Assembly (NCBI RefSeq): GCF_028368995.1
Contig: NZ_JAQNDL010000003.1
Location: 1 to 64,000 of the forward strand
Reading direction: 5' to 3'
Source: Nannocystis bainbridge
GTDB lineage: Bacteria > Myxococcota_A > Polyangia > Nannocystales > Nannocystaceae
DNA length: 64,000 bases
The stretch's first letter is position 1; every line of letters starts with the position of its first letter. The position numbers and the translations under genes were made by a program. Positions 1-50,900 of this stretch are shown piece by piece. The notes under the pieces were generated by a model. The model was not told the DNA's origin, did no database searches, and saw only the letters and a list, made by a program, of their open reading frames with translations.

Positions 1-231
1 CACACACCGGGGCCCGACCGGTGTTCGGCAGCCCCCGCTTCCAGCGGCGCCGGGCGTCGATTTCAGCAGTGACGGATCGCTCGCGCGTCGATCGCTCGCT
101 CCAATGGCGCTCGCGCGGGCCGCGAGCGAGCGGCGAGCGAGCGAACCCTCGACGACGCCCGCGCCGCAGCGATCGCAGCGGCCGCGCGGCGCCTCACAGT
201 GACCGCGGCGATCGGCGCCCCGTCCGCCGGC

Positions 232-762
232 TCACTCGCCGGCGCCGCTCGCCGGCTCGCTCGTGTCGTCGCCGCGCAGCGCCACCGACTCGCCGGCGAT
301 GGTGGCCCCGCCCTCGAGGCACAGCATGCGCACGCGGCCGCTGGCGACCGGGCGCCCGTCGTCGTCGCGGATCTCGACGCCCCACACCTGCGTGCGCCGG
401 CCGCGGCTCAGCGGGGTCGCGCGGGCCCGCAGCGTGCCGCCGCGGGTGCCGTGGAGGAACGAGGTCGCGTTCTCGAGGCCGACAGTCGCCTGCCCGCGCG
501 CCATCGCCGACATCGCAGCGCCCGCGCTCGCCAGCGACTCGACGATCGTCGCGTACACGCCCCCGTGGACCAGGCCGTACGGCTGCAGCAGCTGCGGCGT
601 AACGGGCACCTCGGCCTCGACCGCGTCGGCGCTGACCGCCGTGTAGGCCAGGCCGATCAGGCGGTCGAACGCGCTGCGGTGGTCGTTGAAGATCGCCAGG
701 ACCGCGGCCGGATCGCTCCGTGCCGCGACCAGCGCTGCCAGGGCCCGGCCGGCGTCGGTCAT
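232..762 (-). CDS. PaaI-family hotdog-fold thioesterase
   Basis: QPYGLVHGGVYATIVES, VGLENATSFL, RGRRTQVWGVEI motifs; start trimmed to ATG at 762 (MTDAGRAL). Confidence 0.9.
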   Translation of the reverse strand: MTDAGRALAALVAARSDPAAVLAIFNDHRSAFDRLIGLAYTAVSADAVEAEVPVTPQLLQPYGLVHGGVYATIVESLASAGAAMSAMARGQATVGLENATSFLHGTRGGTLRARATPLSRGRRTQVWGVEIRDDDGRPVASGRVRMLCLEGGATIAGESVALRGDDTSEPASGAGE

Positions 763-838
763 CCCCGCCACCCTACGCGCAGGGCCGGGCGCCGGCAAGG
801 CCCCGGCGCGGTCCGCGTTCATTCCGCGGATCGGGCGC

Positions 839-926
839 CATGTCCTCGGAGACATGCCCCCATGAACATGCTCGAACAGACATGCTCTTTCGAACATGCT
901 CACGCAGACATGCCCCTGCGGACATG
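839..926. repeat. 14-bp-period CATG array (7 units)
   Basis: CATG starts at 839, 853, 867, 881, 895, 909, 923 with variable 10-bp spacers. Confidence 0.9.
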
Positions 927-959
927 CTCGCCAGGCAACCCCGCGGCGCGAGCGAGCGC

Positions 960-1709
960 TCAGCCGCGCGACAGCCCCGGGCGCGGCACGTCGGTGCCGA
1001 GGGTCTCGGCGCTGATCGGCGCGCCGATGGCGGCCAGGGCCTGGCGGTGCTGGGCCGGCGGGACCTTGAGCAGGGCGCGCTCGAACGCCTGCAGGCGGAC
1101 GAAGCTCGGCAGGGCCCAGGTGCGCGCCGCCAGGCCGGCGAGGCGGGGCCACCGCTCGGGGTCAGGCTCGACGCGGGCGAGGGCGGCGTTGCGCAGGAAG
1201 CTGGCGACGGCGATGTCGGCGATCGACAGCTCGCCGCAGAAGAACCCGTCCGCGGGCGCCTGCGCCTCGAGGTAGTCGAACACCGGCGGCACGTCCTCGC
1301 GGATGGTCCTCTCGATCAGCGCGGTGTCGGGCGGCTGGTTGAACACGGCCGGGCGCACCACCACCTGGGCGAACAGGCGCCACAGCAGCACCTCGCCCAT
1401 GCGCGTGTCGGCGAACTCCTCGAGCCAGCGCGCGCGGGCTCGCAGCGCCGGGGTGCGCGGCAGCAGCGGCGGCGCGGGGTGGACCTCTTCGAGGTACTCG
1501 CAGATGACGGTGGAGTCGGTGAGGGTCAGGTCGCCGTCGACGAGCACGGGGATCCGCCGCAGCGGGCTGACGGCGGAGAAGCCGTCGCCGCCGAGGAAGG
1601 GGATGATCGGGTCGATGGTGTACGCGACGCCCTTGAGGTCGAGCGCGACCAGGACCTTGCGGACGTAGGGCGAGACGTAATTGCCGACGATGTGGACCGG
1701 ACCGGGCAC
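960..1709 (-). CDS. glutathione S-transferase family protein
   Basis: SPYVRKV, SPLRRIPVL, LTDSTVICEYLEE, SIADIA motifs; GTG start inferred at 1709. Confidence 0.92.
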   Translation of the reverse strand: MPGPVHIVGNYVSPYVRKVLVALDLKGVAYTIDPIIPFLGGDGFSAVSPLRRIPVLVDGDLTLTDSTVICEYLEEVHPAPPLLPRTPALRARARWLEEFADTRMGEVLLWRLFAQVVVRPAVFNQPPDTALIERTIREDVPPVFDYLEAQAPADGFFCGELSIADIAVASFLRNAALARVEPDPERWPRLAGLAARTWALPSFVRLQAFERALLKVPPAQHRQALAAIGAPISAETLGTDVPRPGLSRG

Positions 1710-1763
1710 CGGCCGACCAGACCACCGGGGCGCGGAGCTGTCAACGTCGGCCGGCGCGGGTAC

Positions 1764-1779
1764 CTGTCCTGCGGGACAG
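1764..1779. promoter_or_regulatory. perfect palindrome CTGTCC-TGCG-GGACAG upstream of GST (member of the dispersed motif family)
   Basis: Directly visible inverted repeat; function unknown. Confidence 0.5.
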
Positions 1780-2070
1780 ATCGCAAGCGCCCGGCGCCTG
1801 GCGGCCCGCGCCGGCGTGGCAACCGGCAGCTTCGGCGTGAAAGCGCCAGTGGGTCGGCTCACGCGAGCGGCGCGCCCGCGACCGGGCGGCATCGGGGACG
1901 ATGGGCCCGTGACCGCGAGCGACCCCCACCCTCCCACGTCGGCCCAGCTGCGCGCCGCGCTCGCCAGCCTGCAGACCGCCGAGCGCGTAGCGGGGGTTCA
2001 TGCTCCGGAGTGTCGCAACGCCTCGAGACGGTGCGCGCCGTCCCGTCTCGGTCGCGCGAGGGCCCGCCCG

Positions 2071-2144
2071 CGTGCTCGACACATCATGTTCTATCGGACA
2101 TGTCTTCAAGACCATGCCCTCTCGAACATGTTCTCCTCGCCATG
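2071..2144. repeat. 14-bp-period CATG array (6 units)
   Basis: CGTG at 2071, then CATG at 2085, 2099, 2113, 2127, 2141. Confidence 0.9.
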
Positions 2145-2207
2145 AAGCTCTCGACGCGCTCGCGGGTCGCCCCGTCCTGAACAGCGCCGGCTCGACGCCC
2201 CCCCGGC

Positions 2208-2708
2208 TCAGCGCCGCCGCCGGCGCAGCAGCGCGAAGCCCAGCACCAGCCAGCCGGCACCGAGCCCCGCCTCGTCGATCGCGCACGAGCTCGTCGCCGG
2301 CTTCGGCGCCTCGGTCGCGGTCTTCGCGGGCTCGCTCTTGCCGCTCACGGGCGCGGGCGCAGGCGCAGGCGCGGACGTCGCCGTCTTGCCGTCCGGCGAC
2401 CAGCTCCCGGTCGCGCCCGGCGGACAGTACAGCTCCCTGCCGCTGTAGTTGCCGCCGTCGCGGCAGCGCTGCTGCAGCCCCTTGGCGGCGACGCTCGCCC
2501 TGCACTCCTCGCCGACGTGCTTCCACTCGGCCTCCGGCTGCCCCGGCATGAACGCGTAGTCGCAGAACTCGCCGGCGGGGCACTGTTCGGCCAGCGTGCA
2601 GTGGGCGTTCGGCGAGTTTGGATCGGGCGGGACATCGGCCCGCGCGAGCGCCGGGGTGAACGCGAACGCGATGGCCACGAGGGCGGCCCTGAAGCAGCGA
2701 ATGCTCAT
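2208..2708 (-). CDS. secreted Cys-rich protein with MYXO-CTERM-like sorting tail
   Basis: Signal peptide (ALARA-DV), Cys-rich domain, Pro/Ala linker, C-terminal SSCAIDE...WLVLGFALLRRRRR. Confidence 0.8.
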   Translation of the reverse strand: MSIRCFRAALVAIAFAFTPALARADVPPDPNSPNAHCTLAEQCPAGEFCDYAFMPGQPEAEWKHVGEECRASVAAKGLQQRCRDGGNYSGRELYCPPGATGSWSPDGKTATSAPAPAPAPVSGKSEPAKTATEAPKPATSSCAIDEAGLGAGWLVLGFALLRRRRR

Positions 2709-2917
2709 GCCGGCGATGATAGCGAATTCGCGGCGGCGCGCGCACGCGCGAGGATGCGCGCCGTGGACGCCCACCGGCCCGACTCATGGCATTCGCAGAC
2801 CTCACTGCGGGCCGCGCTGGACCTCTCAGCAATTATCGAGAGCAGGCCGCGTTCACCGCCTGCTGCTCCGCGGGCCCACGCTTCCGCACGACCTCCTGCG
2901 TGATAACCTCCCCGATC

Positions 2918-4219
2918 ATGCTGGCGACCGTGCCCTTCTTGCGCTGGTCCGACGTCGATCCGGCCGGGCACGAGTTCGATCCGGAGCCGGCGCGGCGGAT
3001 CGTCGCGCGCCACGTCGAGGCTGCCGTCGCCGGGCGCGGGGCGCACTGGCGGGACACCCCGACGGACGTGCGTGACGCGCTCGTCACCACCTTCGAGCGC
3101 GAGTTCGTCGGCGAGTACGGCGCGTGGGCGTCCGGCTGGCACTGGGCCGCCAGCGAGCCCGGCGGCGGCGGACCTGTGCGCGGCTGGTGCTGCTCGCGCG
3201 ACAGCCTGTTTCGCCGCGACGACCCCGACCCGCAGGCGACCGTCGAGCGCGTCGTCGCGGCGCTGGCCGAATGGCAGCAGTTCCTCGTCGACCTCGCCGC
3301 GACCTTCGCCGACCTGTACCAAGAGACAGCCGAGTTCCCGCTCGCGGACCAGGTCGAGCGCGCCGCGGCCCGGCTCCTGCCGCTCGTCGTCGAGCGCACC
3401 GGCACCGAGGACGCCTGGTACAACACCTTCACCCGCACGCTGCTGTGGTGCCTCGAATCGTTCGGTCGCGCCGGCTCCGAGGTCGAGCGCGCGGTCGAGG
3501 GCGTCGTCGACGGGCAGTTCTCGAGCTGGTGCGCGCCGGACGAGGACGCCGCCCGCGAGGCCTGCGCCCAGCTCGGCCTGGCCGTCGCCGAAGCGGCGCG
3601 CGAGGCCTCGGCCGCGCCTCCCGACGCCCTCGCCGCCTGGCTCGAGACCCGCGTCGCCGCGTTTCGCGAGCCCCGGCGATCGCGGCGGCGCCAGCCGCTT
3701 CACCGCGACGGTCACCTGCAATTCATCGAACAGCGCGACCGCCCCCGCGACCCCGTGCGCGCCGATCGCATGCTCGCCGCGCTGACGGCCTGCCGGGCTC
3801 ACGCGCGCTCGGGCGCGCCGCTCACCTTCGCGGCGCTCGCGTCGTGGCAAGCGCTGGTGCTCGGCGTGGCGGCGCCGCAGTTCCGCACCACCGAGGCGTT
3901 CGCCCGCGGCGGCCACGTCCGCTACGGCCTGACCGACGACACGTCCGCGCGCTTCACCGCCTGCCTCGCCGAGGCCGGCTCCGACGAACTGCTGGCGGTC
4001 CGCGCCGCCCGCGTGTACCTCGACGTCTGCTTCTTCCACCCGTTCGCCGACGGCAACGCCCGCGCCGCCCGCCTCGCCCTCGATCACGTGATCACCCGCG
4101 CCGGCCTGGCTCTGCACAGCGTCGAGCCGCTGTTCGTCATCGCCCGCGACGCCCGCGACGTCCGTGGCGCCTGGTGCCTGGCGCACGCGCTCGAGCAGTT
4201 GCTCGGCGCACCCGCGTGA
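2918..4219 (+). CDS. Fic/Doc domain protein with long N-terminal domain
   Basis: HPFADGNARAAR Fic motif near the C-terminus; ATG at 2918. Confidence 0.85.
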   Translation: MLATVPFLRWSDVDPAGHEFDPEPARRIVARHVEAAVAGRGAHWRDTPTDVRDALVTTFEREFVGEYGAWASGWHWAASEPGGGGPVRGWCCSRDSLFRRDDPDPQATVERVVAALAEWQQFLVDLAATFADLYQETAEFPLADQVERAAARLLPLVVERTGTEDAWYNTFTRTLLWCLESFGRAGSEVERAVEGVVDGQFSSWCAPDEDAAREACAQLGLAVAEAAREASAAPPDALAAWLETRVAAFREPRRSRRRQPLHRDGHLQFIEQRDRPRDPVRADRMLAALTACRAHARSGAPLTFAALASWQALVLGVAAPQFRTTEAFARGGHVRYGLTDDTSARFTACLAEAGSDELLAVRAARVYLDVCFFHPFADGNARAARLALDHVITRAGLALHSVEPLFVIARDARDVRGAWCLAHALEQLLGAPA

Positions 4220-6100: not shown

Positions 6101-6787
6101 GTGGCCCCCGACGAACCCGACCTGCGTCCGGGCGGCCGGCGCTTCGCCGCGCTGGTGGCCGGCGTCGCCGCGGCCGCGCTGGTGCTGCGATACGTCGTGC
6201 TGGTGGTCGGCACCCGCGACACGCTCGGGCCGCTGCGGGCCACCGCCCGCTATTTCAGCGAGTTCAGCGTGCTCAGCGGCGGCCTCGTGGCCCTGACCGC
6301 CGGGCTCGCCGCGACCGCCTCGCAGCGCCCGCTGGCCCGCCTGCTCGCGCGTCCGGCCGCGCGCGCCGGCGTCGGCCTCTACAGCGTCGTCACCGGCGGC
6401 GCCTACTTCCTGGTCCTGCGCCACCTTTGGCGCCCGCGCGGGCTGCAGTGGTGGGCCGAGGCCGGCCTGCACTACGCCGTGCCGATCTTCTACCTGGTCT
6501 GGTGGACATGTTCTTTGGGACATGGTCAACTGCAACGCCGCCACGTGCTGCTGTGGCTGCTGGTCCCGCTGGCCCACCTGGTGTGGACAATCGCCCTCGG
6601 CGTCCAGGCCGGCGAATGCCCCTACCCCTTCCTCGACGTCGGCGCCCTCGGCGTCGCCGCCGTCGCCCGCAACGCCCTCCTCGTGCTCGGCGTGTTCGCG
6701 GCCGGCGGGCTCGCGGCGCTGCGGGTCGACCGGGCGTTCGCCCGCCGCGAGGGCCCCATCCGCCCGCGCGTGGCCGCCTCGCGCTGA
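6101..6787 (+). CDS. Pr6Pr / FAR-17a-AIG1-like integral membrane protein
   Basis: About 6 TM segments, YFSEFS, LHYAVP, YPFLD motifs. Confidence 0.75.
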   Translation: MAPDEPDLRPGGRRFAALVAGVAAAALVLRYVVLVVGTRDTLGPLRATARYFSEFSVLSGGLVALTAGLAATASQRPLARLLARPAARAGVGLYSVVTGGAYFLVLRHLWRPRGLQWWAEAGLHYAVPIFYLVWWTCSLGHGQLQRRHVLLWLLVPLAHLVWTIALGVQAGECPYPFLDVGALGVAAVARNALLVLGVFAAGGLAALRVDRAFARREGPIRPRVAASR

Positions 6788-10912: not shown

Positions 10913-13900
10913 GTGAGGGGCTCGACGACGGATTCGTCCGAGACGACCGAGACGACCGCGGATGGGTCCTTCGACGGGCCGCCGGGGTCGCCGCCGGGGC
11001 CTGGCGAGCGCATCGGGCCCTATCGGCTGGTCCGCTACCTCGGCGCCGGCGGCATGGGGCTGGTCTACGAGGCGGTCGACGACGAGCTCGGCGATCGGGT
11101 CGCGCTCAAGACCCTGAGCCGGATCGACCCGTGGCGGCTGTTTCGCCTCAAGCAGGAGTTTCGCACCCTCGCCGGCATCCGCCACGACAACCTGGTGCGG
11201 CACGAGGCGCTGGTGGTCGAGGACGGCGCGTGGTTCCTCGCCATGGAGTACGTCGCCGGTACGCGCCTCACCGACGCCGTCGCGGCCGACCCGGCCCTGC
11301 TGCGCCCGGTCCTGGCCCAGCTCGCCAGCGGCGTGCGGGCGCTGCACGCCGCCGGCGTGGTCCACCGCGACCTCAAGCCGGCCAACGTGCTCGTCGAGCC
11401 CGGCGGTCGCGTCGTCATCCTCGACTTCGGCCTGGCCGAGAGCGCCCTCGCCGGCGAGGCCACGCCGACCGGTCGCGCCCCGGCCGGCACCCCCGGCTAC
11501 GTCGCCCCGGAGCTGGCCCGCGGGGTCGCGCCCGCGCCCGCCAGCGACTGGTTCGCCGTCGGCGTGATCATGTTCGTGCTGCTCACCGGCGAGCTCCCGG
11601 GCCAGCGCCAGCGCCCGTCGATCTGCGCCGCCGACGTCCCGCCCGACCTCGACGACCTGTGCGCGGCGTTGCTCGCAACTGACCCGAAGGACAGGCCCGA
11701 CGGCGCCGCGATCGTCGCTCGCCTCGGCGCCACCGCGGCGGTCGCCGACGCGCTGGCGCCGCTGTTCGGCCGCGACGACGAGCGCGCGGCGTTGACGGCC
11801 GCGATCGCCGGGACCGTCGCCGGCGCGCCGGGCTTCGTGCGCGTGCACGGGGCCTCGGGCGTGGGCAAGACCCGGCTGGTGCGCGAGGTCCTCGGCGCGC
11901 TCGAGCGGGCCGGGGCGGCGCTGGTGCTGCGCGGCCGCTGCTACGAGTGCGAGTCGGTGCCCTACGGCGGCTTCGATGCTGCGATCGACGCCTTGATGCG
12001 CGCGCTGCGGGCCGGCGGACGCTGGCCCGCGGCCGACGTGGCCGCGGCCTCGACGGTGTTCCCGGTGCTGTCGGCGCTGCTGCCCGGGCCGCAGGCGCTC
12101 GCCGACGCCGACGATCGCAGCGCCGCGTTCGCCGGCGTGCGGGCGCTGCTGGCCGCGGCCGGCGACGGGCGTCCGGTCGTGCTGTTCGTCGACGACCTTC
12201 ATCACGCCGGCGCCGACACGGCCGGGCTGATGCTCGACCTGCTGCTGCCGCGCGCCGACGGCCTGGCGCTGACGATCGTCGCCACCTGCCGCAGCGACCG
12301 CGAGGCCGACAGCGCCTGCCTGCGCGAGCTCCACGCCCGCGCCGGCGCCCGCGGCCAGGCGATCGTCGAGCGGCCAGTGGCCGTCGCCGCGCTGGCGCCC
12401 GCGGCCTGCGAGGCGCTGCTGCGCCACCACCTCGGCGCCCGCGCCGAGGGGCGCATCGCCGACCTGACCCGAGAGTCAGGTGGCAACCCGTTCTTGCTCG
12501 AGGCGCTGGCCCGCGACGGCGCGGCCGGCCCGGCGCCCGCGATCGCCGAGTGGGTCCGTCGGCGCACGCACGGGCTGCCCGAGGAGGCCGCGCGGCTGCT
12601 GGCTGCGATCGCGCTGTCGGGCCAGCCGCTGCCGCAGGGGGTGCTGCTGCAGGCTGCGCAGGTCAAGCGCCCGGGGGCCGCGCTGGGGGCCCTGCGGGCG
12701 CTGTCGCTGGTCCGCATGCAGGGCTCGCGGCGGTGGGACATCGTCGAGCCGAGCCACGACCGCATCGGCGAGGGCGTGGTCGACGGCCTGGCGCCGGCGC
12801 TGCGGGCCCTGCTGCACGGGTCGATCGCCGAGGCGCTGGCGCGCGAGCGCTGGGGCAGCCCCGAGCTGCGGGCCCGCCACTGGCACGGGGCCGGCGAGCT
12901 CGATCTGGCCTGCGGGGCCGCCGAGGAGGCCGCGGCCGAGGCCGAGCAGGCGCTGGCGTTCGAACGCGCGGCCGCGCTGCTGGGCGACGCCGCGGCCTGG
13001 ATCGCCGGGCGCGACCTCGGCCGGTCCGCCGCGCTGCAGGGCCGCCAGGGCCGCGTGCTGGTCCGCGCGGGCCGCTGCGCCGCCGCGGCCGAGACGTTCC
13101 TGGCCAGCGCCGAACATGTCCCCGAGGACAGCCGACCCGAGGTCCTGCGCCAGGCCGCGGACGCGTGGATGGCCGCCGGCTACATCGACCGCGGGCTCGA
13201 CCTGCTGCGGCCGATGCTGCGCGCCGAGGGCGTGTGGTGGCCGCGCTCGCCGCTGCTGGCCGTGTTCGCGCTGCTGTGGACGTACGTGCGGCTGCGCCTG
13301 CGCGGCATCGAGATCGACGGGGCCGCGGCGCCGACCGAGGCCCAGCTGCGGCGCGTGGATCTGTGCTGGTCGGTCGGCATGGGCCTCACCAACACGATGC
13401 CGGCCGACGGCATGCTGTTCGCGGTGCGGGCCGTGCTGGCCGCGCTGCAGGCCGGCGAACCGGGCCGGGTCGGCCGCGGGCTGGCGGTGCTCGGCGCGTT
13501 CCACCGCCTCATCGGCCGCGCCGAGGTCGGGGCTCGCTTCGTCGCGCGCGCCCGCGAGATCGCCGAGGCGCGCGACGACCCGCAATTGCTCGGCCTCACC
13601 CACGTGTGCTCGGCCGCCGACGCGATGATCACCGGCGACTGGCGCGAGTGCGTCGCCCGCACCGCGCGCGGGCTCGACGCGCTGTCGGCCCCGCGCGCCG
13701 GCATGACCTGGGAGCGGGTGCTCGGGGCCTGCTTCGAGCTGACCGCGCTCGACCAATTGGGCCGCTTCGTCGAAGTCGAGCGCCGCGCCGGCGAGCACCT
13801 GCGCGACGCCGAGGCCCGCGGCGACCTCTACGGCCTGGTGGTGTTCAGCCAGTTCTTCGCGCAGGCCCGGATCGCCGCCGGCGACCTGGCCGCGGCCCGC

Positions 13901-20865: not shown

Positions 20866-23800
20866 TCACCGCTCCCCGAGCAGCGATTGCCACGCCGGGT
20901 CCTCGCTCATCCGCGACGCGAACGCCGGCTCGCGGCGCAGGCGGTCGCGCACCAGCTCCGGTGCAGGGTCGCTGGCGACAGCCTGCCCTGCGTGGATCAG
21001 CGCGGCGGCCGGGTCGACCTCGGCCAGCAGCAGCGCCAGCGCCAGGTGCGTCTCTGCGCGCTCTGGCCCGTCGGCGTCGGCTTGCTGCGGTCCGCTGGCG
21101 TCGCCCGGCTCATCCCCGAGGGCTGCCAGGGCCGCCTCGAAGTCGCGGCGGGCCAGCGTGGTGGCGCCGAGTTCGCGGTAGATCATCGCCCGGCCGTGCA
21201 GCAGGGCCCGCAGGGCCTGGCGCGCCGCCGCGTCGGGCGCGGCCAGGGCTTCCACCCCCGCCAGCGCCGCCAGCATCGCCTGCTGCACCATCGGGTCGTC
21301 GACGTGATGGCGGGCCAGCACCGGCCAGGTCGCGGCCAGCAGCTCCAGCTCGCGCGGTCCCACGGCTGCGCGCAGCGTCGGCGCCAGGCCGGGGCGGGTC
21401 CGCAGCAGGTGCAGCGCATCGGCGTCGTCGAGCCCCGGCAGCGCCAGCGCGGCCATGCGGGTCATGCCGGCCACGTCCTGCAGCGCGTCGTGGGCCAGCA
21501 GCGCCAGCAGGGCGTGGCGGGGCGAAGCGCCTGCCCGGTCGCCGAGGGCCGCCAGCGCCGCCAGCGGCTCGCCGCCGACCAGCGCCCGGGCCGCGCGGGC
21601 CGCGGGTTCGTCGTCCTCGCTCGGCGCGTCGAGCCGGTCGGCGGCGGGTTCGTCGTCCTCGCTCGGCCCGTCGAGTTGGCCGTCGTCCGCGGTCGGTGCG
21701 TCGATCCGGGCCCCGTGCAAGGAGATCCGGCGGATCTCGGCGACGATCCGGTTGGGCGCGAACACGTCGCCCTCGTGGCCGAGCACGAGGGTGTAGCGGC
21801 CCGCGGCCGGCCTGGCGGTGGCGCGGTGCTCCGCGAGCGCGCGCAGGCCGTCGTCCTCGGCGGCGCACAGGGTCGCGTCGCGGTCGGGGAAGTAGGTCGC
21901 GCGCACGATCACGCGGCGGCGGGTGGCGGCGGTCGCCACCTGGCGGGAGGTCAGCTCTCGCCGCTCGCGAGCGACCGGCAGGCAGTGGGTGCCGTGGTCG
22001 CGGTAGCGGCGGTCGCCGCGGGCGTTGACGCCGACGCCGAGCAGCGGCTGGCCGTCGGCGTCGTGGAGCGCGACCCGCAGGTCGGTGTGGTACTCGGCGT
22101 GGGTCACCTCGAGCTCGAGCTCGAGCTCGAGCGGGCCGCCGTCCCAGCGCACCGGCAGGGTCGCCAGTCGGGTCTGGGCCCCGAGCGCGTCGACCTGCAG
22201 GCCGCCCGACAGCGGGTCGAGCCGCAGCGCCGCCGGCCGCTCGAGCCGCCACGCCGGGTCGAGCGCGCCGCCGGCGAAGCGCAGCTCGACCGACTCGCGG
22301 GCGTCGAGCAGCGGCGCCAGGCGGCCCACCACGTCGCTCGCCGCCGCCGCCTGGGCCGGGCTGCGCCGCGGGTGCGCCTCGAGCCGGCGGGCCGCCTCCA
22401 GCGCCTCGCGGTGGCGACCGAGCTCGGTCAGCAGCTCGGCGCGCCGCAGCCACGCGGCCGGGGCCAGCTCGGGGTCGTCGAGGCTGCCGCGGTCGAGCGC
22501 GAGCGCCTCCTCGGCCTGGCCGGCGACCGCGTGCAGGGCCGCGGCCCGGTCGGTGAAGCGCCGGCGCACCGCCTCGTCGGCGACCAGCGGCGCCGCCGCG
22601 CGCAGGACCTCGGCGGCGCTGGCCGGCAGCCCGCCGGCGGCCAGCTCGTCGGCGCGGGTCCAGCGGTCGCGCAGCAGCTCGTCGTCGAGGCCGGCCGGCG
22701 GGGGCGCGGACGCGGGCGCCGGGGTCGGCGCGGGCGGCAGCGCGACGTCGCCGACCCCGAGCCCCCACAGCGCGTGGTGGTCGTCGGCCAGCAGCAGCGC
22801 GCGCCCCGGCCCGTCGCCGGCGCGCACCGCCGCCAGCGGCGCGCCGTGGCCGAGCACCAGCGGCAGCAGCTCGCCGTCGTCGCCCTGGTGGATCAGCAGG
22901 GTGTGGATCAGCCCCCCGCCGCGGATCGGCAGCGCCAGCTCCTCGCGCGCGTCGCCGTCGAGGTCGGCCGCGATCAGCACCCCGTCGCGCAGCTCGAGCG
23001 CGAGCCCCTCCGGCGGCGGCATGTGCGAGGCCGTCACCAGCGCGGCGCCGTCCCAGCGCAGCAGGTGCACGCCGGGCGCCTCGCCGATGTGCGGCGGCTC
23101 GGGGAACACGTCGGCGTTGACGCCGAGCCCGTCGCGCACGGCCACCAGCACCAGCTCGCCGTCCGGCCGCCGCAGCAGGCCCAGGCTCTGGACCCACCCG
23201 AACTGGCGCCGGCCGACCAGCTGCAGTTGCCCGTCGTCGTCGGCGTGAAACACCCGCAGATCGAAGGCACGCGGCGGCCCGAACGCGGCCACGATCTCCT
23301 GCACGCCGTCGCCGTCGAGGTCACCCGCGATCAGATCCTCGAGATCGGAGCCGTTCCGCGCGCTGGCCGGGTGGGCCTCGCGCGGCGCGGCGCCGTCGGC
23401 CTCGACCGCGTGGAAGCCCCGCAGCGGCCAGCGGTACTCGAAGTACAGCTCGGGCCCGCCGTCGCCGTCGGCGTCGACGATCCCGCGCGGCAGCAGCTCG
23501 GCCGCCGCGGGGAAGCGCGCCAGCGGCTCCTGCGGCGCGCGCAGGTCGAGCAGCGCGGCGCTGCCCTGGCGGAACGTCACCCCCCACGGCGCCGCCCCGT
23601 TCGCCAGGTAGACCCTCGCCTCGGCCTGCCAGCGCGGCCCCGGCTGCAGCGCTTCGTCGAGCAGCACCACGCCGCTGCCGCCGGCGTCGATCACCGCCGC
23701 GCGCCACGGCCCGCCTGGCGGCAGCGCGACCGCCCCGCTCGCGCTGGTGTCGATCGCCCGGGCCCGCGCCAGGTGCTGCAGCAGCGGCCGCACCGCGGCC

Positions 23801-25329
23801 AGCCGGGCCGGCGCCGCCTCGCCCAGCAGCTCCACCGCGGCCGGCAGGTCGCGCCGGCGCAGCGCCGCGTGGAAGTGCAGCGCGTGGTCCTGCGGGTCGC
23901 CGGGCGCGTCCGGCAGCGCCTGGACCACCCGCGTCAGCGCGGCCGTGTCCCAGCCCTCGAGGTGGAGCTCGGCGATCCGCCGCAGAGCCGCGTGGGCGTC
24001 GGCGGGCGCGGTCGCGTCGGCGTAGGCGCGGGCGTAGTCGGCCAGCGCCCCCTCGCGCTCGCCCGCGGCGTGGCGCCGGTCGCCGCGCTGCTGCCAGGCC
24101 CGCACCAGCGCCTGCGTGCCCTGGTGCGCCGGGTCGTCGAGGAACGCCTGGAAGGCCGCCGCCGCGCGCTCCGGGTCGGCCTCGCCGGCGACCGCCGCCA
24201 GGTGCTCGGCCGCCAAATCCTCGATGCGCTCGCGGGTCCACGTGCGCCGCAGGTGCAGCGCCGCCAACGTGGCGACCAGCGTCACCGCGGCGATCGCCAG
24301 CGCCAGCCCGGCCCGCCGCAGCCGCACCCGCCGGCGCACCGCCGGGTCGGCCGCCAGCGCCGCCAGCAATTGCGACATCGTCTGCCAGCGCCGCTCCGGG
24401 TCGACCCGCAGCCCGCGCAGCACCACCGCCCGCAGCCACGCCGGCACCTGCGCGTGCGCGGGCGGCCGCACCGCGCCGGCCAGCGACGCGGCGCGCAGCG
24501 TCTCGTAGCTGGCGGCGGCGAACGGCCGCTCGCCGTACAGCGCCTCGTACAGCGAGGCGCAGAAGCTGAACACGTCGCTGCGCGCGTCGGCCCGGGCCCC
24601 GCGGTGCTGCTCGGGGGCCATGTACGCCGGCGTCCCGAGCACGCTGCCGGTCGCGGTCAGGTCGAGCGAGGCCATGCGGCGGTCGTCCGGATCGGGGGCC
24701 GCCTCGGTGCCGTCGTCGCCCACCAGCCCGAAATCCAGCAGCAGGACCCGCCCGTCCTCGCCGACCATCACGTTGTCGGGCTTGAAGTCGCGGTGGACCA
24801 GCCCGGCCCGGTGCACCTCCGCCAGGCCGCGCCCGGCCGCCACGAACAGCTCGACGATCCGCGAATACGTCGCCTCCGGCTCGACCTCCGCCAGCTGCTG
24901 GCGCAGCGTCCGCCCGCGCACGTACTCCATCGCCAGGAACACCCGCCCCGCCGAGGTGCTCACGTCGTAGATCTGGACGATGTTGAGGTGCGACACGCGG
25001 GCCAGCGCCTTGGCCTCGCGGATGAACCGCCCCACCACCGCCGCGCTGCTGCAGTCGGTGCGCAGCATCTTGAGCGCGACGACGCGGTCGAGCACGTCGT
25101 CGTAGGCGGCGTGGACCACCCCGACTCCCCCCTGCCCGAGCACGCGCAGCAGCCGGTAGCGGCCGAGCTGCGGCGAAGTCGGCGACGACTCGGCCGGCCC
25201 GCGCGGCCCGCTGCCCAGCGGCCCTCCGTCCTGCGACCCGTCCCACGTCTCGGCCAGCGCCTGGCCGGGCGCCTGGCTGAGCGTGCGCAGCGGTTCGTCC
25301 CCGGCCACGTGGCGAGTATGCCCCGACAT
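20866..25329 (-). CDS. membrane Ser/Thr protein kinase with FG-GAP and TPR-like C-terminal region
   Basis: LGQGGVGVV, HRDFKPDNV, DFG, GTPAYMAPE, TM helix, DLDGDG repeats; ATG at 25329. Confidence 0.9.
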   Translation of the reverse strand: MSGHTRHVAGDEPLRTLSQAPGQALAETWDGSQDGGPLGSGPRGPAESSPTSPQLGRYRLLRVLGQGGVGVVHAAYDDVLDRVVALKMLRTDCSSAAVVGRFIREAKALARVSHLNIVQIYDVSTSAGRVFLAMEYVRGRTLRQQLAEVEPEATYSRIVELFVAAGRGLAEVHRAGLVHRDFKPDNVMVGEDGRVLLLDFGLVGDDGTEAAPDPDDRRMASLDLTATGSVLGTPAYMAPEQHRGARADARSDVFSFCASLYEALYGERPFAAASYETLRAASLAGAVRPPAHAQVPAWLRAVVLRGLRVDPERRWQTMSQLLAALAADPAVRRRVRLRRAGLALAIAAVTLVATLAALHLRRTWTRERIEDLAAEHLAAVAGEADPERAAAAFQAFLDDPAHQGTQALVRAWQQRGDRRHAAGEREGALADYARAYADATAPADAHAALRRIAELHLEGWDTAALTRVVQALPDAPGDPQDHALHFHAALRRRDLPAAVELLGEAAPARLAAVRPLLQHLARARAIDTSASGAVALPPGGPWRAAVIDAGGSGVVLLDEALQPGPRWQAEARVYLANGAAPWGVTFRQGSAALLDLRAPQEPLARFPAAAELLPRGIVDADGDGGPELYFEYRWPLRGFHAVEADGAAPREAHPASARNGSDLEDLIAGDLDGDGVQEIVAAFGPPRAFDLRVFHADDDGQLQLVGRRQFGWVQSLGLLRRPDGELVLVAVRDGLGVNADVFPEPPHIGEAPGVHLLRWDGAALVTASHMPPPEGLALELRDGVLIAADLDGDAREELALPIRGGGLIHTLLIHQGDDGELLPLVLGHGAPLAAVRAGDGPGRALLLADDHHALWGLGVGDVALPPAPTPAPASAPPPAGLDDELLRDRWTRADELAAGGLPASAAEVLRAAAPLVADEAVRRRFTDRAAALHAVAGQAEEALALDRGSLDDPELAPAAWLRRAELLTELGRHREALEAARRLEAHPRRSPAQAAAASDVVGRLAPLLDARESVELRFAGGALDPAWRLERPAALRLDPLSGGLQVDALGAQTRLATLPVRWDGGPLELELELEVTHAEYHTDLRVALHDADGQPLLGVGVNARGDRRYRDHGTHCLPVARERRELTSRQVATAATRRRVIVRATYFPDRDATLCAAEDDGLRALAEHRATARPAAGRYTLVLGHEGDVFAPNRIVAEIRRISLHGARIDAPTADDGQLDGPSEDDEPAADRLDAPSEDDEPAARAARALVGGEPLAALAALGDRAGASPRHALLALLAHDALQDVAGMTRMAALALPGLDDADALHLLRTRPGLAPTLRAAVGPRELELLAATWPVLARHHVDDPMVQQAMLAALAGVEALAAPDAAARQALRALLHGRAMIYRELGATTLARRDFEAALAALGDEPGDASGPQQADADGPERAETHLALALLLAEVDPAAALIHAGQAVASDPAPELVRDRLRREPAFASRMSEDPAWQSLLGER

Positions 25330-25950
25330 CGCCGCGCTCCGACGCCGATCCTCCGGCAACGGGTGCGCGCCAGCGCGAGTCACCGCCCGGACGCAGAGGA
25401 CTCCTCGCAGCGCGCGCCCGCAGTCCCATGAATTCCTCCGCAAGGTCCTCGCCCCGCCGGCACACATTCGCCGCGGACGAATGACCACGCGTCCCCCCGC
25501 GCGACCGGACACTTGCAACCCCGCACCGGCCACCGGCAAACCCTGATGACAACCCAGCCGCCGCCCCTGTCCCCGCCCGTATCCAGCCGGACGCGGCTCT
25601 CGCCGTGAGTTCCTTCGTTTCAAGCCAAAACCGGCGGACGTTGCATCTGCCAGCAAGCCCCGCGAACTACAATCATACGAGTCGCCGCGACGATTCCGTA
25701 GCGACGCACCATCGCCCCCAAATCCCCGCAGCGAGAGTGCCACCATTCTCGTCAGACTCGCGGGCGATTCACCAGAGACGCTCGCGCCGTCGACTCGCCC
25801 CCCGTGCCGCGAGACTCGCCCTCACAGCACGTATAGGATGGCTTGAGCCGGGCGGCCGGCTCCGAGCAAGCGGTATTCTCGTGAAGCGGCCCACGGCACG
25901 AGGCGTGTCGCCGATGCCCGCATCGACCCGCGTGAACCATGCTGTCACCC

Positions 25951-36071: not shown

Positions 36072-36710
36072 ATGGCCGCCCCCGCCCGCAAAAAGCCCGT
36101 CAAACGGCGCCGCAGCCCGATTCAGAGCCGAGGTCAGGTCACCGTCGACGCCATCGTCGAGGCGGCCGCTCAGATCTTGGCCAAGAAAGGTCCGGCGGCC
36201 GCGACCACCAACGCCGTCGCCGCGCGCGCCGGCGTCAGCATCGGCACCCTCTACCAGTACTTCGCCGACCGCGAGGCCCTGCTGCGCGAGATCGGTCGCC
36301 GTCACGTCGCCGAGATGCAGGCCGTGCTCGCCGGCGCCCTCACCGGCATGGAGGGCCTGGCGCTGCCGGCCGCCGTCGATCGCCTCGTCTCCGCGATCGT
36401 CGCCATGCACCGCGTCGCCCCGCGGCTGCACCAGGCGCTGCATCAATCGCTGGCCCGCGACCACCTCGACACCATCGACGCCTTCGAGGTCGCCGTCGAG
36501 GCGATGGTCGCCAGCGCCCTCGTCGGCCGCGGCGACGACCTCGACCTGCCCCACCCCGAGCTCACCGCCACCGTGCTGGTCCGCGGCCTCGGCGGCCTGA
36601 TCCGCACCACCCTCCGCCGCGAGCCCGAGCGCCTCGACGACCCCGCCCTCGCCCTCGCCATGCGCGCGATGATCCTCGGCACCCTCGGCGAGAGCCGCCG
36701 CAAGGGCTGA
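36072..36710 (+). CDS. TetR/AcrR family regulator
   Basis: PIQSRG, TTNAVAARAGVSIGTLYQYF HTH. Confidence 0.93.
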   Translation: MAAPARKKPVKRRRSPIQSRGQVTVDAIVEAAAQILAKKGPAAATTNAVAARAGVSIGTLYQYFADREALLREIGRRHVAEMQAVLAGALTGMEGLALPAAVDRLVSAIVAMHRVAPRLHQALHQSLARDHLDTIDAFEVAVEAMVASALVGRGDDLDLPHPELTATVLVRGLGGLIRTTLRREPERLDDPALALAMRAMILGTLGESRRKG

Positions 36711-36852
36711 CGGGCGCCAGTAAAGCTCGCAATCCCTCGTGACGCCCACGGCGCCGCTTCGCCACGGGCCCATCGCTCGCCGCGTGGCGACGCCCTCTCC
36801 AAGCCCTCTCACGGATCCGCGTGACGGCGCTCCCGCCTGGCCGCACCAGCAT

Positions 36853-36940
36853 CATGTCGAATAGAACATGTCTTAAAAAGCATGTTCATTAAGACATGTC
36901 CATTAGAGCATTCCCGTTCGAGCATGCTCGTTCGGCCATC
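36853..36940. repeat. 14-bp-period CATG array (7 units)
   Basis: CATG at 36853, 36867, 36881, 36895, 36923; CATT at 36909; CATC at 36937; in-phase CATG also at 36993. Confidence 0.9.
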
Positions 36941-37010: not shown

Positions 37011-38495
37011 TCATTCGCTCGCCCGGCGCAGCACGAACAGCCTCGCCGCCGGCGCCGCGGTCGGGCCTGGCAGCGTGCTCGCGGCCTCACGCTCGAGCGT
37101 GAACGCCGGCGCGAACGGCCCCGCGATCGTCTCCTTCGCGTACGGCGTCACCCCGGCGGCCGGTTCGGCCAGCGTCTTCACGATCAGCGCCCCGCCGGGG
37201 GCGACCAGCCGGGCCATCGCCGCCGCATGGCGCTCGGCCTCCGCCGGCGCCAGCAGGTGCAGGCACGCGCGATCGATCGCCGCGTCGAACCGGCCCTGCA
37301 GGCGCGTCGCCGTGATGTCGTCGCTCAGCCAGATCGCCCGGCTCGTCGGCGCACGGGCGCGGGCCTGCGCGAGCGCGGCCGCCGAGATGTCGGTGGCGAC
37401 CACCGTGTGACCGCGGCTCGCCAGCGCCACCGCCAGCGCGCCCAGGCCCGTCCCGACCTCGAGCACGGACAAGCCCGTCGCGCCCTCGCGCTCGACCGCC
37501 GCCAGCAGGTCCGCGTCGGCCTCGTCGTGCTGCCACGGCAGCTCGGCCGGCGCGTGCGTGCGGTACAGCCGGTCCCAGCCCTCGGCCCCGCGCGGCGCCT
37601 GGGCCAGCCCCGCGCTCGCGCGCTCGCGCACGATCGCCTCGAGCAGCTGCACCACCACCTCGGGCGGCGGCGCCCCGCCCAGCATCGGCGTGCGCATCGC
37701 CGGCGGATCGGCGACCTCCAGCGCGCGCGCCGGGTGGGCCACGTGCAGCCCGTCCGCGATCAGCTGCGCCAGGTTGCGCTGCACCGCCGGCTCCGCGTAC
37801 ATCGCGGGGTTCATCGACGGCACCACCAGCACCGGCGCGCGCGTCGCCAGGGCGATCGCCGCCACCGCCGACGCGTGGTCCCCCGTCGCCAGCCGCGCGA
37901 TCGTCGTCGCCGACGCCGGGCACACCAGCACCGCGTCGGCCCACTGCGCCAGCTCGATGTGCGGCACCCGATGCACCTGGCTCTCGGGCCAGATCGCCGT
38001 CACCACCGGCGCGTGCGTCAACGCCTCGAGCGCCTCGACCCGCACGAACCGCAGCGCGCTCTCCGTGACCGCCGCGCGCACCTCGAAGCCGCGCGCCTGC
38101 AGCCGCTGGATCAGCGCCGGCGCGTGCATCGTCGCCGCCGCCCCCGTCAACCCCACCACCACCCGCGGCCCGGCCGTGCGCCCTGCCCGTGACGGCCCCG
38201 TCGTCACCGCCTCGAGCGCCCCCGTGCGCCGCAGCAGCGCCAGCAGCTCGCCGATCACCTCGGGCCGCTCGATCGGCGCCCCGGCCAGCGCCTCGACGTG
38301 GGCCAGCACCTCCGCCCCCGAGCGCGGCATCGCCAGGAACGCCAGCACCGCCGACGCCAGCGCCGCCGAGTCGCCGGTCAGCGCGTGGCCCTCGCCGTCC
38401 GGGCCCAGCGCCACCAGGCGCTCGCCGCATTCGTAGATCCGCACCACCGAGGCGCGGCGGAGGTTCCATTCGGTCCAGCGCTCGGGGTCCGTCAT
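37011..38495 (-). CDS. three-domain fusion: RRE/PqqD-like + HFCD flavoprotein + class I SAM methyltransferase
   Basis: VGLTG, PHIELA, PASATT, PSMNPAMY; VLEVGTGLG, DIS, DRACLH. Confidence 0.85.
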   Translation of the reverse strand: MTDPERWTEWNLRRASVVRIYECGERLVALGPDGEGHALTGDSAALASAVLAFLAMPRSGAEVLAHVEALAGAPIERPEVIGELLALLRRTGALEAVTTGPSRAGRTAGPRVVVGLTGAAATMHAPALIQRLQARGFEVRAAVTESALRFVRVEALEALTHAPVVTAIWPESQVHRVPHIELAQWADAVLVCPASATTIARLATGDHASAVAAIALATRAPVLVVPSMNPAMYAEPAVQRNLAQLIADGLHVAHPARALEVADPPAMRTPMLGGAPPPEVVVQLLEAIVRERASAGLAQAPRGAEGWDRLYRTHAPAELPWQHDEADADLLAAVEREGATGLSVLEVGTGLGALAVALASRGHTVVATDISAAALAQARARAPTSRAIWLSDDITATRLQGRFDAAIDRACLHLLAPAEAERHAAAMARLVAPGGALIVKTLAEPAAGVTPYAKETIAGPFAPAFTLEREAASTLPGPTAAPAARLFVLRRASE

Positions 38496-39000: not shown

Positions 39001-39119
39001 GCCTGCAGCCTATCACGCCCCTCCTCGCGCGGATCGCGGCAGCCTGCGGCCGGCGCCCCCCAGAGCGGACGCGCAAGCTCGAGCACCAGGCTGCGCCCGA
39101 CGGCAGGCCGACGCGCGGA

Positions 39120-39193
39120 CAGGCCCGATCCGACATGCCCCGACCGCCATGCTCTCAAGATCATGTCCTATGCGACATGTCCTTTGATGCAGG
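39120..39193. repeat. 14-bp-period CATG array (6 units)
   Basis: CAGG at 39120, CATG at 39134, 39148, 39162, 39176, CAGG at 39190. Confidence 0.88.
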
Positions 39194-47569: not shown

Positions 47570-47946
47570 CGGCGAGGGCTCCGAGGCCGTGGCGGCGACG
47601 GGGCGGCCGGGCCCGTCGACGGCGGTCGAGATGCTTGAGCATACATCGCCGCGCCACGGTGGAGAATGGGCGCTGGGGACCCTTCTGCGAGTGCCGTGGT
47701 GCGCGTGCGACTGGTGCATCGTCGAACGCGTGTGAACGCTGCGGATGGAGCAAGGCGCGGTTTCGTGCCGTTTGCGCGCCATGGCCCGCGGACGATTGTT
47801 CGTGCGTCATCGCCGCCAGGGCGGCAAGGGCCGACCTCGCCTGCGGGCGTGGCCCTGCGCGCCGCGCGAATGCAGGGGTGACGACAAGGACGCCGCCAGC
47901 GCGGCCAGACGGTATGATACGACGGTTCGGCTCAGCGACGCTCGAC

Positions 47947-50900
47947 ATGGACGCCTCTCCACGGTTCTCGCTCAAGCAACGGCTCCACGAGGGGCAGAAC
48001 TCGATCATCTTCCGCGGCGTCCGCGAAGACGAGCAGACCCCCGTCGTCATCAAGGTGCTGAAGGGCGAGTACCCCAGCCCCCGCGCATTGAGACAGTTGC
48101 GCCGCGAGTTCGTCACGCTGCGCGAGCTCGAGGTGCCGGGGGTCGTGCGCGTCTATTCGCTCGAGAACTACGGCAACGGGCTCGCGCTGGTGATGGAGGA
48201 CGACGGCGGCGTGCCGCTCAGCGACGTCATCCACGGCGAGGCGCTGCAGCTGCGGCGGGCGCTCGAGCTGGGCGTGGCGCTGGCCGACACCCTGGCGCGC
48301 CTGCACGCGCGGGCGATCATCCACAAGGACATCAAGCCGCACAACATCCTCGTCAATTCGACGACCGGCAGCGTCAAGCTGATCGACTTCGGCATCGCTA
48401 CCAACCTGGCCCATGAGACAGCCCAGGTCTCGAGCCCCGAGGCGCTCGAGGGCACGCTGATGTACATGTCGCCCGAGCAGAGCGGGCGGGTCAACCGGAT
48501 CGTCGACCAGCGCACCGACCTCTACTCGCTCGGCGTCACGCTCTACGAGATGCTGACGGGCGCGGTCCCGTTCAACGCCAACGACGCGATGGAGCTGGTC
48601 CACAGCCACATCGCCCGCACGCCGGTGCCGCCGTGGGTGCGCACGCCGACGGTCCCCCGCGCGGTCTCCGACATCGTCATGAAGCTGCTGGCCAAGGGGC
48701 CGGAGGACCGCTACCAGCACGCGCTCGGGCTGTCGGCCGACCTCGCCCGCTGCCTGGCGGCGCTCGACGAGACCGGCGAGATCGAGGCGTTCGAGCTCGG
48801 CCAGCGCGACCGCGCCGACGTGCTGCGCATCCCGCAGAAGCTGTACGGCCGCGAGGCCGACATCCGCGCCCTGACCGAGGCGTTCGGGCGGGTCCAGGAC
48901 GGCCGCCCCGAGCTGGTGCTGGTCGGCGGCGGCGCGGGCGTCGGCAAGTCGATGCTGGCCCACGAGGTCCACCGCGTGATCGCCCGCGGCGGCGGCCGCT
49001 TCGTCACCGGCAAGTTCGACCTGGTCCAGCGCAACATCCCGTTCAGCGCCCTGGCGGCGGCCCTGTCCGACCTGCTGCGCCAGCTGCTGACCGAGTCGTC
49101 GCGCACGCTGGCGGAGTGGCGCACGCGCATCCAGCTGGCCGTCGGCAGCAGCGGCCAGCTGGTCGTCGACCTCGTGCCCGAGCTCGAGCGGATCCTCGGC
49201 AAGCAGCCGCCGCTGCCGCCGCTGCGCCCGACCGAGTCGCAGAACCGCTTCGGCCTGGTGATGCAGAACTTCGTGCGCGCCCTGTGCCCGCGCACGTCGC
49301 CGCTGGTGATCTTCCTCGACGACCTGCAGTGGGCCGACGCCGGCTCTCTGTCGCTGCTGCGGCTCATCCTCACCGATCCCGACGGCGGCCACCTGCTGCT
49401 GGTCGGGGCCTATCGCGACGGCGAGGTGGACCTCGCCCACCCGCTGCGCGCGACGGTCACCCAGCTGCGCAAGGACGGCGTGGCCCTCACCGAGCTCGCG
49501 CTCGGCCCGCTCGACCGCGCCAGCGTGCGCGCGCTGCTGGCCGAGACGCTGCTCCGCGAGCGCCCCGGGTCGCCGCCGCCGCGCGAAGAGGTCGAGCGGC
49601 TCGAGAGCCTCGCCACGCTGGTGTTCGACAAGACCCACGGCAACCCGTTCTTCCTGACGCAGTTCCTGACGATGCTGCATCGGAACGGGCAGATCCGCTT
49701 CGACGCGACCACCGGCGGGTGGGCGTGGGACACGGCCGCGGTGGCCGCGGCCCCGATCACCGAGAACGTGGCCGAGCTGATGTCGGAGCGGCTGCGCGAG
49801 TTCCCGGGCGACACCCAGCGCCTGCTCGCCGTCGCCGCCTGCGTCGGCCACGAGTTCGACGTCGTGACCCTGGCGCGGATCGCCGAGCGCAGCACCGGCC
49901 GCGTCGCCGCCACGCTGTGGCCGGCGCTGCAGGCCGGCCTGGTCGTGCCGCTCGACTCCAACTACCGCCTGCTCGAGGCGATCGACGACGGCGCGCCCGA
50001 GGCGAATGAGACAGTGGAGCTGGTGGTCGCCTGCCGGTTCCTCCACGACCGCGTGCAGCAGGCCGCGCTGTCGCTCAGCACGCCCGAGGCGCTGCACGAG
50101 GTCCACCTGCGGATCGGTCGCAGCCTGCAGGCCGCCCACGTCGGCGAGCTCCGCGGCGACGCGCTGTTCGACGTGGTCCGCCACCTCAACGCCGGCGCGC
50201 CGCGCCTCGACGACCCCGGCGAGCGCCTGCATTTGGCCCGCGCCAACCTCGAGGCCGCGCGCGCGGCCAAGCGCGCCACCGCCTACGCCGCCGGCGCCGC
50301 GTTCGCCTCGGCCGGCATCGCGGTGCTGCCGACGGACGCGTGGGACTCGCAGTACGCGCTGACGCTCGCGCTGCACCGCGAGCAGGCCGAGTGCGACTAC
50401 ATGTGCGGCCGCGTCGACCGGGCCGACGCCAAGCTCGCGGACCTGATCGGTCGCGCCCGCTCGCCGGTCGAGCAGGCCGACCTGTTCGCCCTGCGGGTGA
50501 TGCTGCTGTCGTCGCAGGGCCGCTTCGCCGAGGGCCTGGCGGCCAGCCGCGTCGGTCTACAGCAGTTCGGCGAGCTGCTGCCGGAGACGCCCGAGGCGAC
50601 GATGGCGACCTTCGGCGCGGTCTACGGCGAGATCGAGGCGACGCTGGCCGGCCGCACGGTCGAGTCGCTGGCCGACGCGCCGGCGATGCGCGACCCGGCC
50701 CACAGCGCGGTGCTCCGCCTGCTCAACGAGGCGTTCGGCGCCGGCTTCGTGGTCGACGCCCGCCTCGGCTCGGTCGTCATCCTCAAGCACGTCCTGCTGT
50801 CGCTCACCCGCGGCCCGGGCGAGCTGTCGGCCTTCGGCTACGCGACCTTCGGCTACCTGCTGGTCGGCCCGCTCGGCCGCCCCGCCGACGCGCTGCGCTA

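Follow-up and report, generated by a model that had tools for sequence, protein, structure and literature searches.

The CATG arrays described here are a real, apparently undescribed and selected genome-wide element for which a testable candidate reader can be named and, judging from sequence comparisons, we lean towards viewing them as rows of binding sites for a clade-specific XRE protein, with a proposed role as a barrier at gene ends or in chromosome folding. They were noticed in the window, by which we mean the whole 64-kb stretch analyzed (C2:1-64000 of G000, the source Nannocystis genome of 11.05 Mb and ~71.5% GC).

Phased arrays, their unit and their placement

The seven CATG words reported for array 1 lie exactly 14 bp apart, at 839, 853, 867, 881, 895, 909 and 923, with a single off-register CATG at 861. 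The 14-bp period that the initial annotation saw at three more loci is likewise real, save that some end positions are degenerate and not CATG: array 2 has five exact words (2085-2141) and CGTG at 2071, array 3 has exact words from 36853 to 36895 and at 36923, with CATT at 36909 and CATC at 36937, and array 4 has exact words from 39134 to 39176, with CAGG at 39120 and 39190. Within the window 19 CATG pairs occur at lag 14, whereas ten other lags give 0-2 each and 200 hexamer shuffles average 0.54 (maximum 3), and units scoring at least 9 bits number 48, that is, they extend beyond the four loci (Table 1). Array 1 begins ~25 bases past the stop of the glutathione S-transferase gene and has an orthologue with different spacers in each of four genomes (G001, G005, G007 and G010), the last three of which also hold arrays in the gap matching that of array 3. 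Two copies of positions 1-3617 of the window, inverted relative to each other and 99.9% identical, close contig C5 (710378-713923 and 713911-717528); a fold-back error of the assembly is the probable cause. The window also contains very long open reading frames at 57599-64000 (-), 47914-53205 (+) and 20866-25746 (-), of ~1,500 to >2,100 aa within it.

Table 1. Arrays, units and genes discussed in the text; coordinates are those of the window unless a contig is named
Feature	Position	Strand	Remarks
Array 1	834..938	.	six full units (841-924) and degenerate end units; between two minus-strand genes
Array 2	2080..2146	.	four units (2087-2142); ~60 bases past stop of 2208-2708 gene
Array 3	36848..36940	.	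six AT-rich units (36855-36938); convergent gap
Array 4	39115..39193	.	four to five units; divergent gap, the rare class
Two-unit array	6495..6529	.	overlooked by the initial annotation
Isolated unit	1765..1778	.	one of the 48 window units, score at least 9
Further units, examples	3315, 8701, 8922, 9110, 13117, 33113, 55044, 56856, 57019		score at least 9
Thioesterase (4HBT) gene	232..762	-	downstream of array 1; context only
Glutathione S-transferase gene	960..1709	-	Pfam GST_N_3; stop precedes array 1; context only
TetR regulator gene	36072..36710	+	faces 37011-38495 (-) across array 3; context only
Candidate XRE reader, 126 aa	G000 C1:4266693-4267073	-	outside window; cluster includes WP_224197158.1
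XRE paralog (b)	G000 C3:1091678-1092055	+	Nannocystis duplication

Genome-wide, the suspected excess of CATG at lag 14 is borne out by 3,736 pairs, compared with ~110 at same-frame lags, and chains of at least three CATG at this lag number 954, compared with 1-6 at six control lags. A profile finds ~1,700 arrays in G000 (1,733-1,735), 387 of them on contig C3, where shuffling leaves 0, and ~11,000-11,400 units scoring at least 10 bits, with ~6% expected by chance. The spacers, of which G000 has 2,328 distinct ones, begin with pyrimidines and finish with purines as originally described, and neighbors do share bases, but CATG is not itself the repeat unit: what repeats is TG-YCC-N4-GGR-CA, and CATG arises where two such units meet. 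This follows from the excess of TGTCC-N4-GGACA (1,987 exact copies in G000 versus 0-16 with other spacer lengths) and from the 1,222 of 3,785 relaxed units that lack a flanking CATG altogether. In isolated units TG tends to be preceded by R-S-C and CA to be followed by its mirror image; neighbors therefore overlap at RCATGY, in agreement with the shared CATG proposed at the outset, and the full site is ~20 bp. The flanks of isolated units are constrained and do not pair with each other, and the CCTG and CAGG junctions may represent a compromise between overlapping neighbor sites. General avoidance of the RCATGY palindrome was considered, and none is seen outside arrays.

Conserved phase had been taken to argue against slippage. 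Slippage indeed does not explain the arrays fully, yet units are at times duplicated in register: identical neighboring spacers make up 25 of 2,351 in G000, and some metagenome arrays contain runs of identical units. A fold-back origin was rejected, neighboring spacers not being reverse complements of one another (4.09 of 10, versus 4.21 at random), and loop inversions amount to 2/36, 1/34 and 0/31. Restriction to a chromosome domain was rejected as well, arrays being present in every 200-kb bin. The longest array (C3:1237911-1238190, 20 units) is unusually AT-rich and degenerate and has a small conserved gene on one side and a threonine-synthase-like gene on the other, both named from their sequences.

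Placement was counted on 7,264 filtered gene calls from a purpose-made caller (534 of 7,798 dropped). Arrays are found in 561 of 978 convergent gaps (57%), in 427 of 2,577 co-oriented gaps and in only 44 of 1,002 divergent gaps (4%). Units are sparse within genes (0.3/kb), reach 8.65/kb over the 25 bases that follow the stop codon and fall to 1-2/kb further out, the peak lying within the first 75 bases. Because arrays are depleted in promoter regions and most frequent just past stop codons, a global regulator acting on promoters is unlikely, and a gene-end barrier or nucleoid role fits their placement better. Inside genes 931 units are found, compared with 94-100 after synonymous shuffles, together with 91 in-frame arrays. 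Genes of high codon bias are followed by arrays less often (36% vs 52%). Placement in the genera g2 and g4 (see below) rests on 15 loci. Two array-free stretches of G000 with slightly lower GC, C1:1098832-1299351 (200 kb) and C5:390990-510970 (120 kb), are probably acquired DNA.

Conservation and distribution

The arrays are old, selected loci and not fresh insertions. In 400-kb stretches of three relatives, orthologous convergent gaps agree in array presence or absence in 26/27, 13/14 and 10/10 cases, and across species arrays retain their position and their TG/CA while the inner bases are replaced. With units picked in an outgroup, TG/CA shows 0 substitutions at 172 positions, the arms 30 at 258 and the centers 29 at 172, against an intergenic background of 6.9%, so that the centers change faster than background. 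Genic units keep the rare third-position A/T in 19/22, 14/16 and 17/19 cases, compared with 62%, 41% and 30%. Stable positions, unchanged TG/CA, retained genic A/T and the lack of RAYT matches (see below) together indicate that the arrays have long been under selection.

Arrays of four CATG occur in 10/10 other Nannocystis and 0/20 other genomes, and 400 genomes of the phylum hold 0-18 copies of the exact unit. The related CTGTY-N6-RACAG is present at 61-920 copies in the 11 Nannocystis genomes (g1), 77-138 in 5 g2 genomes and 68-477 in 7 g4 genomes, and at background level, 1-23 copies, in the other 50 genomes of the family; control counts for this 16-bp form are higher in two low-GC g2 genomes (32 and 46). 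One g4 genome, G457, holds 129 strict arrays where its relatives hold 1-15, a second, independent expansion. Among the genomes listed as matching the array pattern (80 of at least 103), 58 are Nannocystis; the 22 others listed are mostly simple repeats, and two of them had only 1-2 exact units genome-wide. Viral contigs gave 0 matches to the pattern, and of 71 metagenome matches 57 matched G000 by blastn, the remainder being mostly simple repeats. Two lower-GC g2 genomes, G011 and G453, have another iterated dyad, TGYA-NN-TRCA, dispersed singly, mostly genic and unphased; TGTANNTRCA has ~2,100 matches per strand in both, compared with 6-123 in the other 71 genomes. Our literature search, which covered main texts and few subscription papers, found no description of the motif, of the XRE protein or of Rho loss in Nannocystaceae.

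A candidate reader and rival explanations

That the arrays form a protein lattice is, we believe, very probable, and granted such a lattice the XRE protein is its probable reader. The row of overlapping sites for an oligomerizing dimeric protein envisaged in the initial annotation is thereby the best-supported reading, now with a candidate protein, with CATG recast as a junction and a global role at promoters unlikely. The candidate was the second to be tested for distribution from among 145 small proteins with ribosomal-type codon bias, its own codon-bias rank being 12 of 7,264. It carries a Cro/C1 helix-turn-helix (HTH_3, PF01381, E 1.6e-12), and its structural model (pLDDT 83) comprises the helix-turn-helix with its basic loop and, at the C-terminus, a pair of helices, the closest folds being SinR, C.AhdI, C.BclI, BldD and DdrO; a sequence search of the PDB gave no match, and the homodimer prediction scored 0.23. 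The helix-turn-helix is nearly invariant, its columns being 0.97 conserved compared with 0.64 towards the C-terminus. With 35 matches the family is narrow, and its gene is syntenic, lying behind the same upstream gene. Two copies are present in 11/11 Nannocystis genomes and one in 4/5 g2 and 5/7 g4 genomes, hence in 20/23 genomes of the three motif-enriched genera versus 0/50 others of the family, and none was found in 400 further genomes of the phylum; the three motif-rich MAGs in which it was not found, G452, G454 and G457, are 60-67% complete. In an unrooted RpoB tree of 22 rows the three genera lie on one side of a branch (SH-aLRT 99), so the co-distribution of XRE and motif counts as one evolutionary event, which many genes could share.

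Sites near the XRE gene itself point the same way. In 4/5 g4 genomes a strict three-unit array is found between 20 and 65 bases upstream of the gene, and in these such arrays number 1 (G458), 2 (G456), 7 (G459) and 7 (G013) genome-wide, the one in G458 being the sole strict array of that genome; the four are orthologous and no independent cases. Their arms are consensus-like (7-8 of 12) and their ends are TGA/TCA (3-4 of 6), an end type seen in only 9/1,735 arrays of G000 and resembling the operators beside the MarR-like family discussed below. Upstream of the Nannocystis copies there is a consensus unit, at 60-100 bases, or a set of phased units at a greater distance, those of paralog b lying in a divergent gap, and the g2 genes have only one or two weak units upstream. 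Neither XRE copy of G000 has a strict array upstream, nor does the gene in G455 (15 genome-wide), where its sites are weak, or in G450 (1 genome-wide), and no sigma-70 promoter was found upstream of it in G013. XRE-less control genomes gave 0, 0, 0, 1, 1, 2 and 12 strict matches, the 12 being mostly simple repeats. The protein could be a target and not the reader.

Several other candidates were considered. LexA was set aside, inspection by eye showing no unit upstream of lexA. Genes adjoining the longest or densest arrays are of no recurring kind on inspection, and inspection of the 81 genes with an array at most 150 bases upstream in divergent gaps revealed no evident regulator; the XRE paralog is missing from this list because of the score cut-off and a mis-set start. 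A basic 183-aa protein (G000 C3:1107326-1107877) with a lysine-rich linker, a C-terminal winged helix and strong codon bias, with paralogs at C1:1867104, C2:1707015 and C2:756542, is possibly an uncharacterized nucleoid protein or silencer; as reader it was rejected, being family-wide (71/73 genomes) with no sites nearby. G000 also encodes a 65-aa histone-fold protein (C1:1377114-1377311) with a weak Pfam CBFD_NFYB_HMF match (E 0.004) and strong codon bias. A different reader, such as the small MarR-like winged-helix family or another clade-specific factor, with XRE merely a target, is the strongest competitor and still unlikely. Genes of this family directly adjoin AT-rich, 14-bp-phased CATG arrays at their own start in four genomes (G013, G456, G441 and G432), so such a fold can accompany a 14-bp lattice; G000 has two members, the g4 arrays upstream of XRE have the TGA/TCA ends in common with these arrays, and only a handful of ~7,300 proteins were tested as readers. 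However, G441 and G432 are motif-poor and XRE-less, the adjoining arrays match only 1, 5, 1 and 1 of 12 CC/GG arm bases where 7-10 are typical of G000, and no phased CATG lies upstream of the 9 members inspected (G000, G001, G009, G010, G457 and G458). The arrays of the MarR-like family are probably its own operator.

Readings that dispense with a protein lattice are less probable still. Arrays acting as RNA, as REP-like 3' stem-loops that stabilize mRNA ends or pause polymerase, would account for their position directly past stops, for the weak covariation of partner positions in the unit (odds ratios 1.28, 1.82 and 1.91), for folding slightly better than column shuffles (-5.80 versus -5.48 kcal/mol per unit), for the -62.6 versus -33.6 kcal/mol of the sense strand of array 1, and for a G-T over C-A bias of 3.1 where sense is the leading strand. 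Against this, stem partners share no more than 0.01 bit of mutual information, the bias tracks the replication strand (0.82 where sense is lagging), flanks are unpaired, junction partners anti-covary (0.36), Rfam gives no match within the window, and RNA stems need neither exact pitch nor single units kept inside genes. We consider this reading improbable; double-stranded recognition of the unit fits best, with a minor RNA or template-switch component possible. Somewhat more remote is a self-DNA marker like DUS/USS or HIP1, built up by biased uptake or methylation-directed repair: copies do run to thousands, genic and intergenic, low-GC3 and probably foreign DNA is poorest in arrays (29% vs 77% of convergent gaps), ComEC is present in 5/5 genomes, and two g2 genomes have a different iterated dyad, but neither drive predicts the strict 14-bp pitch or the sharp peak past stops, and the motif-poor G240 also has ComEC. 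The least credible reading is that of footprints of a non-autonomous REP/MITE-type mobile element, which the initial annotation had named among the findings that would overturn its proposal. The positions of the arrays, behind genes and in convergent gaps, resemble those of REP elements (PMC3733652), yet Y1_Tnp (PF01797, RAYT family) is found in 0/11 Nannocystis genomes (64-91% complete), the 2,328 distinct spacers come with no long copies in common, positions are stable between species and the read bases are under purifying selection, so that this reading is largely refuted already.

A possible role at gene ends and comparison with known systems

Returning to the XRE lattice, we propose that an XRE dimer would read TG-YCC-N4-GGR-CA, with neighboring dimers having the RCATGY junction in common, and that cooperative packing would fix the 14-bp pitch (~120 degrees per step). 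Arrays would lengthen through in-register duplication, with all bases free to drift other than those read, and the protein would probably repress its own gene via the sites just upstream. Just behind stop codons the lattice would be a two-way barrier, stalling RNA polymerase that lacks a pushing ribosome and leaving its release to Mfd, and would so limit read-through and antisense transcription in a family where Rho is not found. A barrier in that position would act from either direction and halt transcription only where it is untranslated, in keeping with the peak at stops, the bias towards convergent gaps and the tolerance inside genes. Mfd is reported to terminate transcription at protein roadblocks and, in modeling, ribosome-trailed polymerase is more resistant to them (PMC10310618). 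Rho (PF07497) is found in 0/25 Nannocystaceae genomes, one of them single-contig, and in 13/16 other genomes of the class; Mfd scores over the cut-off in 4/5 genomes. Only 62/853 convergent gaps have canonical terminators outside arrays, and the unit consensus, which has no T tract, lacks the U tract that an intrinsic terminator carries behind its GC hairpin.

Within the XRE model a barrier is the likeliest job, if one we hold tentatively, and chromosome folding or supercoil control by array bridging comes next as a plausible but less favored one; a SinR-like tail that bridges arrays, or control of supercoiling at convergent ends, comes close to the barrier in likelihood. Counting against the barrier, the apparent loss of Rho is family-wide and older than the motif, 14 genera get by with no arrays, the presence of an array does not preclude a canonical terminator once free length is matched, and both the arrays inside genes and their scarcity after high-codon-bias genes sit awkwardly with it. 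The most far-reaching version, in which a phage-repressor-like XRE would be a genome-wide, sequence-coded termination barrier on phased dyads, with Mfd doing Rho's job, grown from ~100 sites in sister genera to >10,000 and expanded at least twice (Nannocystis and G457), is rather unlikely. Were the barrier model true, it would be a third general bacterial way of ending transcription and would explain how read-through is controlled in some members of a GC-rich family that apparently lacks Rho and has few intrinsic terminators; a nucleoid lattice would instead be a chromatin layer coded in sequence, at a scale for which the literature searched offered no match. Highly iterated words such as HIP1 have been without a reader for decades, and a named candidate protein, cultured species and graded genomes (~100 to >10,000 sites) make the role of such words directly testable.

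Among known systems, Noc, SlmA, MatP and RacA bind tens of sites confined to chromosome domains. The arrays resemble these in having 12-14-bp palindromic sites spread over the chromosome and differ in that their units run to thousands, occupy every 200-kb bin and are tied to gene ends. MetJ on its met-boxes, TrpR, the R-M controller proteins C.AhdI and C.BclI, SinR and the 434 repressor are dimers on short dyads that pack cooperatively at fixed pitch. The XRE protein is like such tandem-operator repressors in its fold (the SinR, C.AhdI and C.BclI matches) and in the sites upstream of its own gene; their targets, however, are between one and a few dozen promoters, as opposed to the ~11,000 units found here, most of which lie at gene ends. 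DUS/USS are non-palindromic uptake words that raise transformation. As with these and with HIP1, a lineage-specific, over-represented short word is kept by selection in genic and intergenic DNA; unlike both, the array units peak at stop codons and have a candidate transcription-factor reader, and unlike DUS/USS the motif is palindromic. HIP1 of cyanobacteria, for which a role in chromosome structure has been proposed (PMC5861425 and PMC4390886), is of the contiguous 5-8-bp palindrome type, dispersed singly, whereas the array unit is a spaced 14-bp dyad in phased rows.

REP/BIME copies are palindromic and lie mostly just past genes, between convergent or co-oriented genes (PMC3733652 and PMC12306157; see also PMC2817692). 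The arrays share with them hundreds to thousands of palindromic copies, REP-type placement and some copies inside genes, but have no conserved 20-40-nt hairpin, no GTAG/CGTC tag and no near-identical copies; they form, moreover, a strict 14-bp lattice of variable units at stable positions in 11 genomes without RAYT. Closest in mechanism to the proposed barrier are CcpA, CodY, LacI and C.Kpn2I, natural roadblock terminators in which RNA polymerase is halted by the bound protein and set free by Mfd, against the resistance of trailing ribosomes (PMC10310618). Use of roadblock termination genome-wide at gene ends was not found in the literature searched: these roadblocks are gene-specific, whereas the proposed array barrier would act genome-wide at gene ends.
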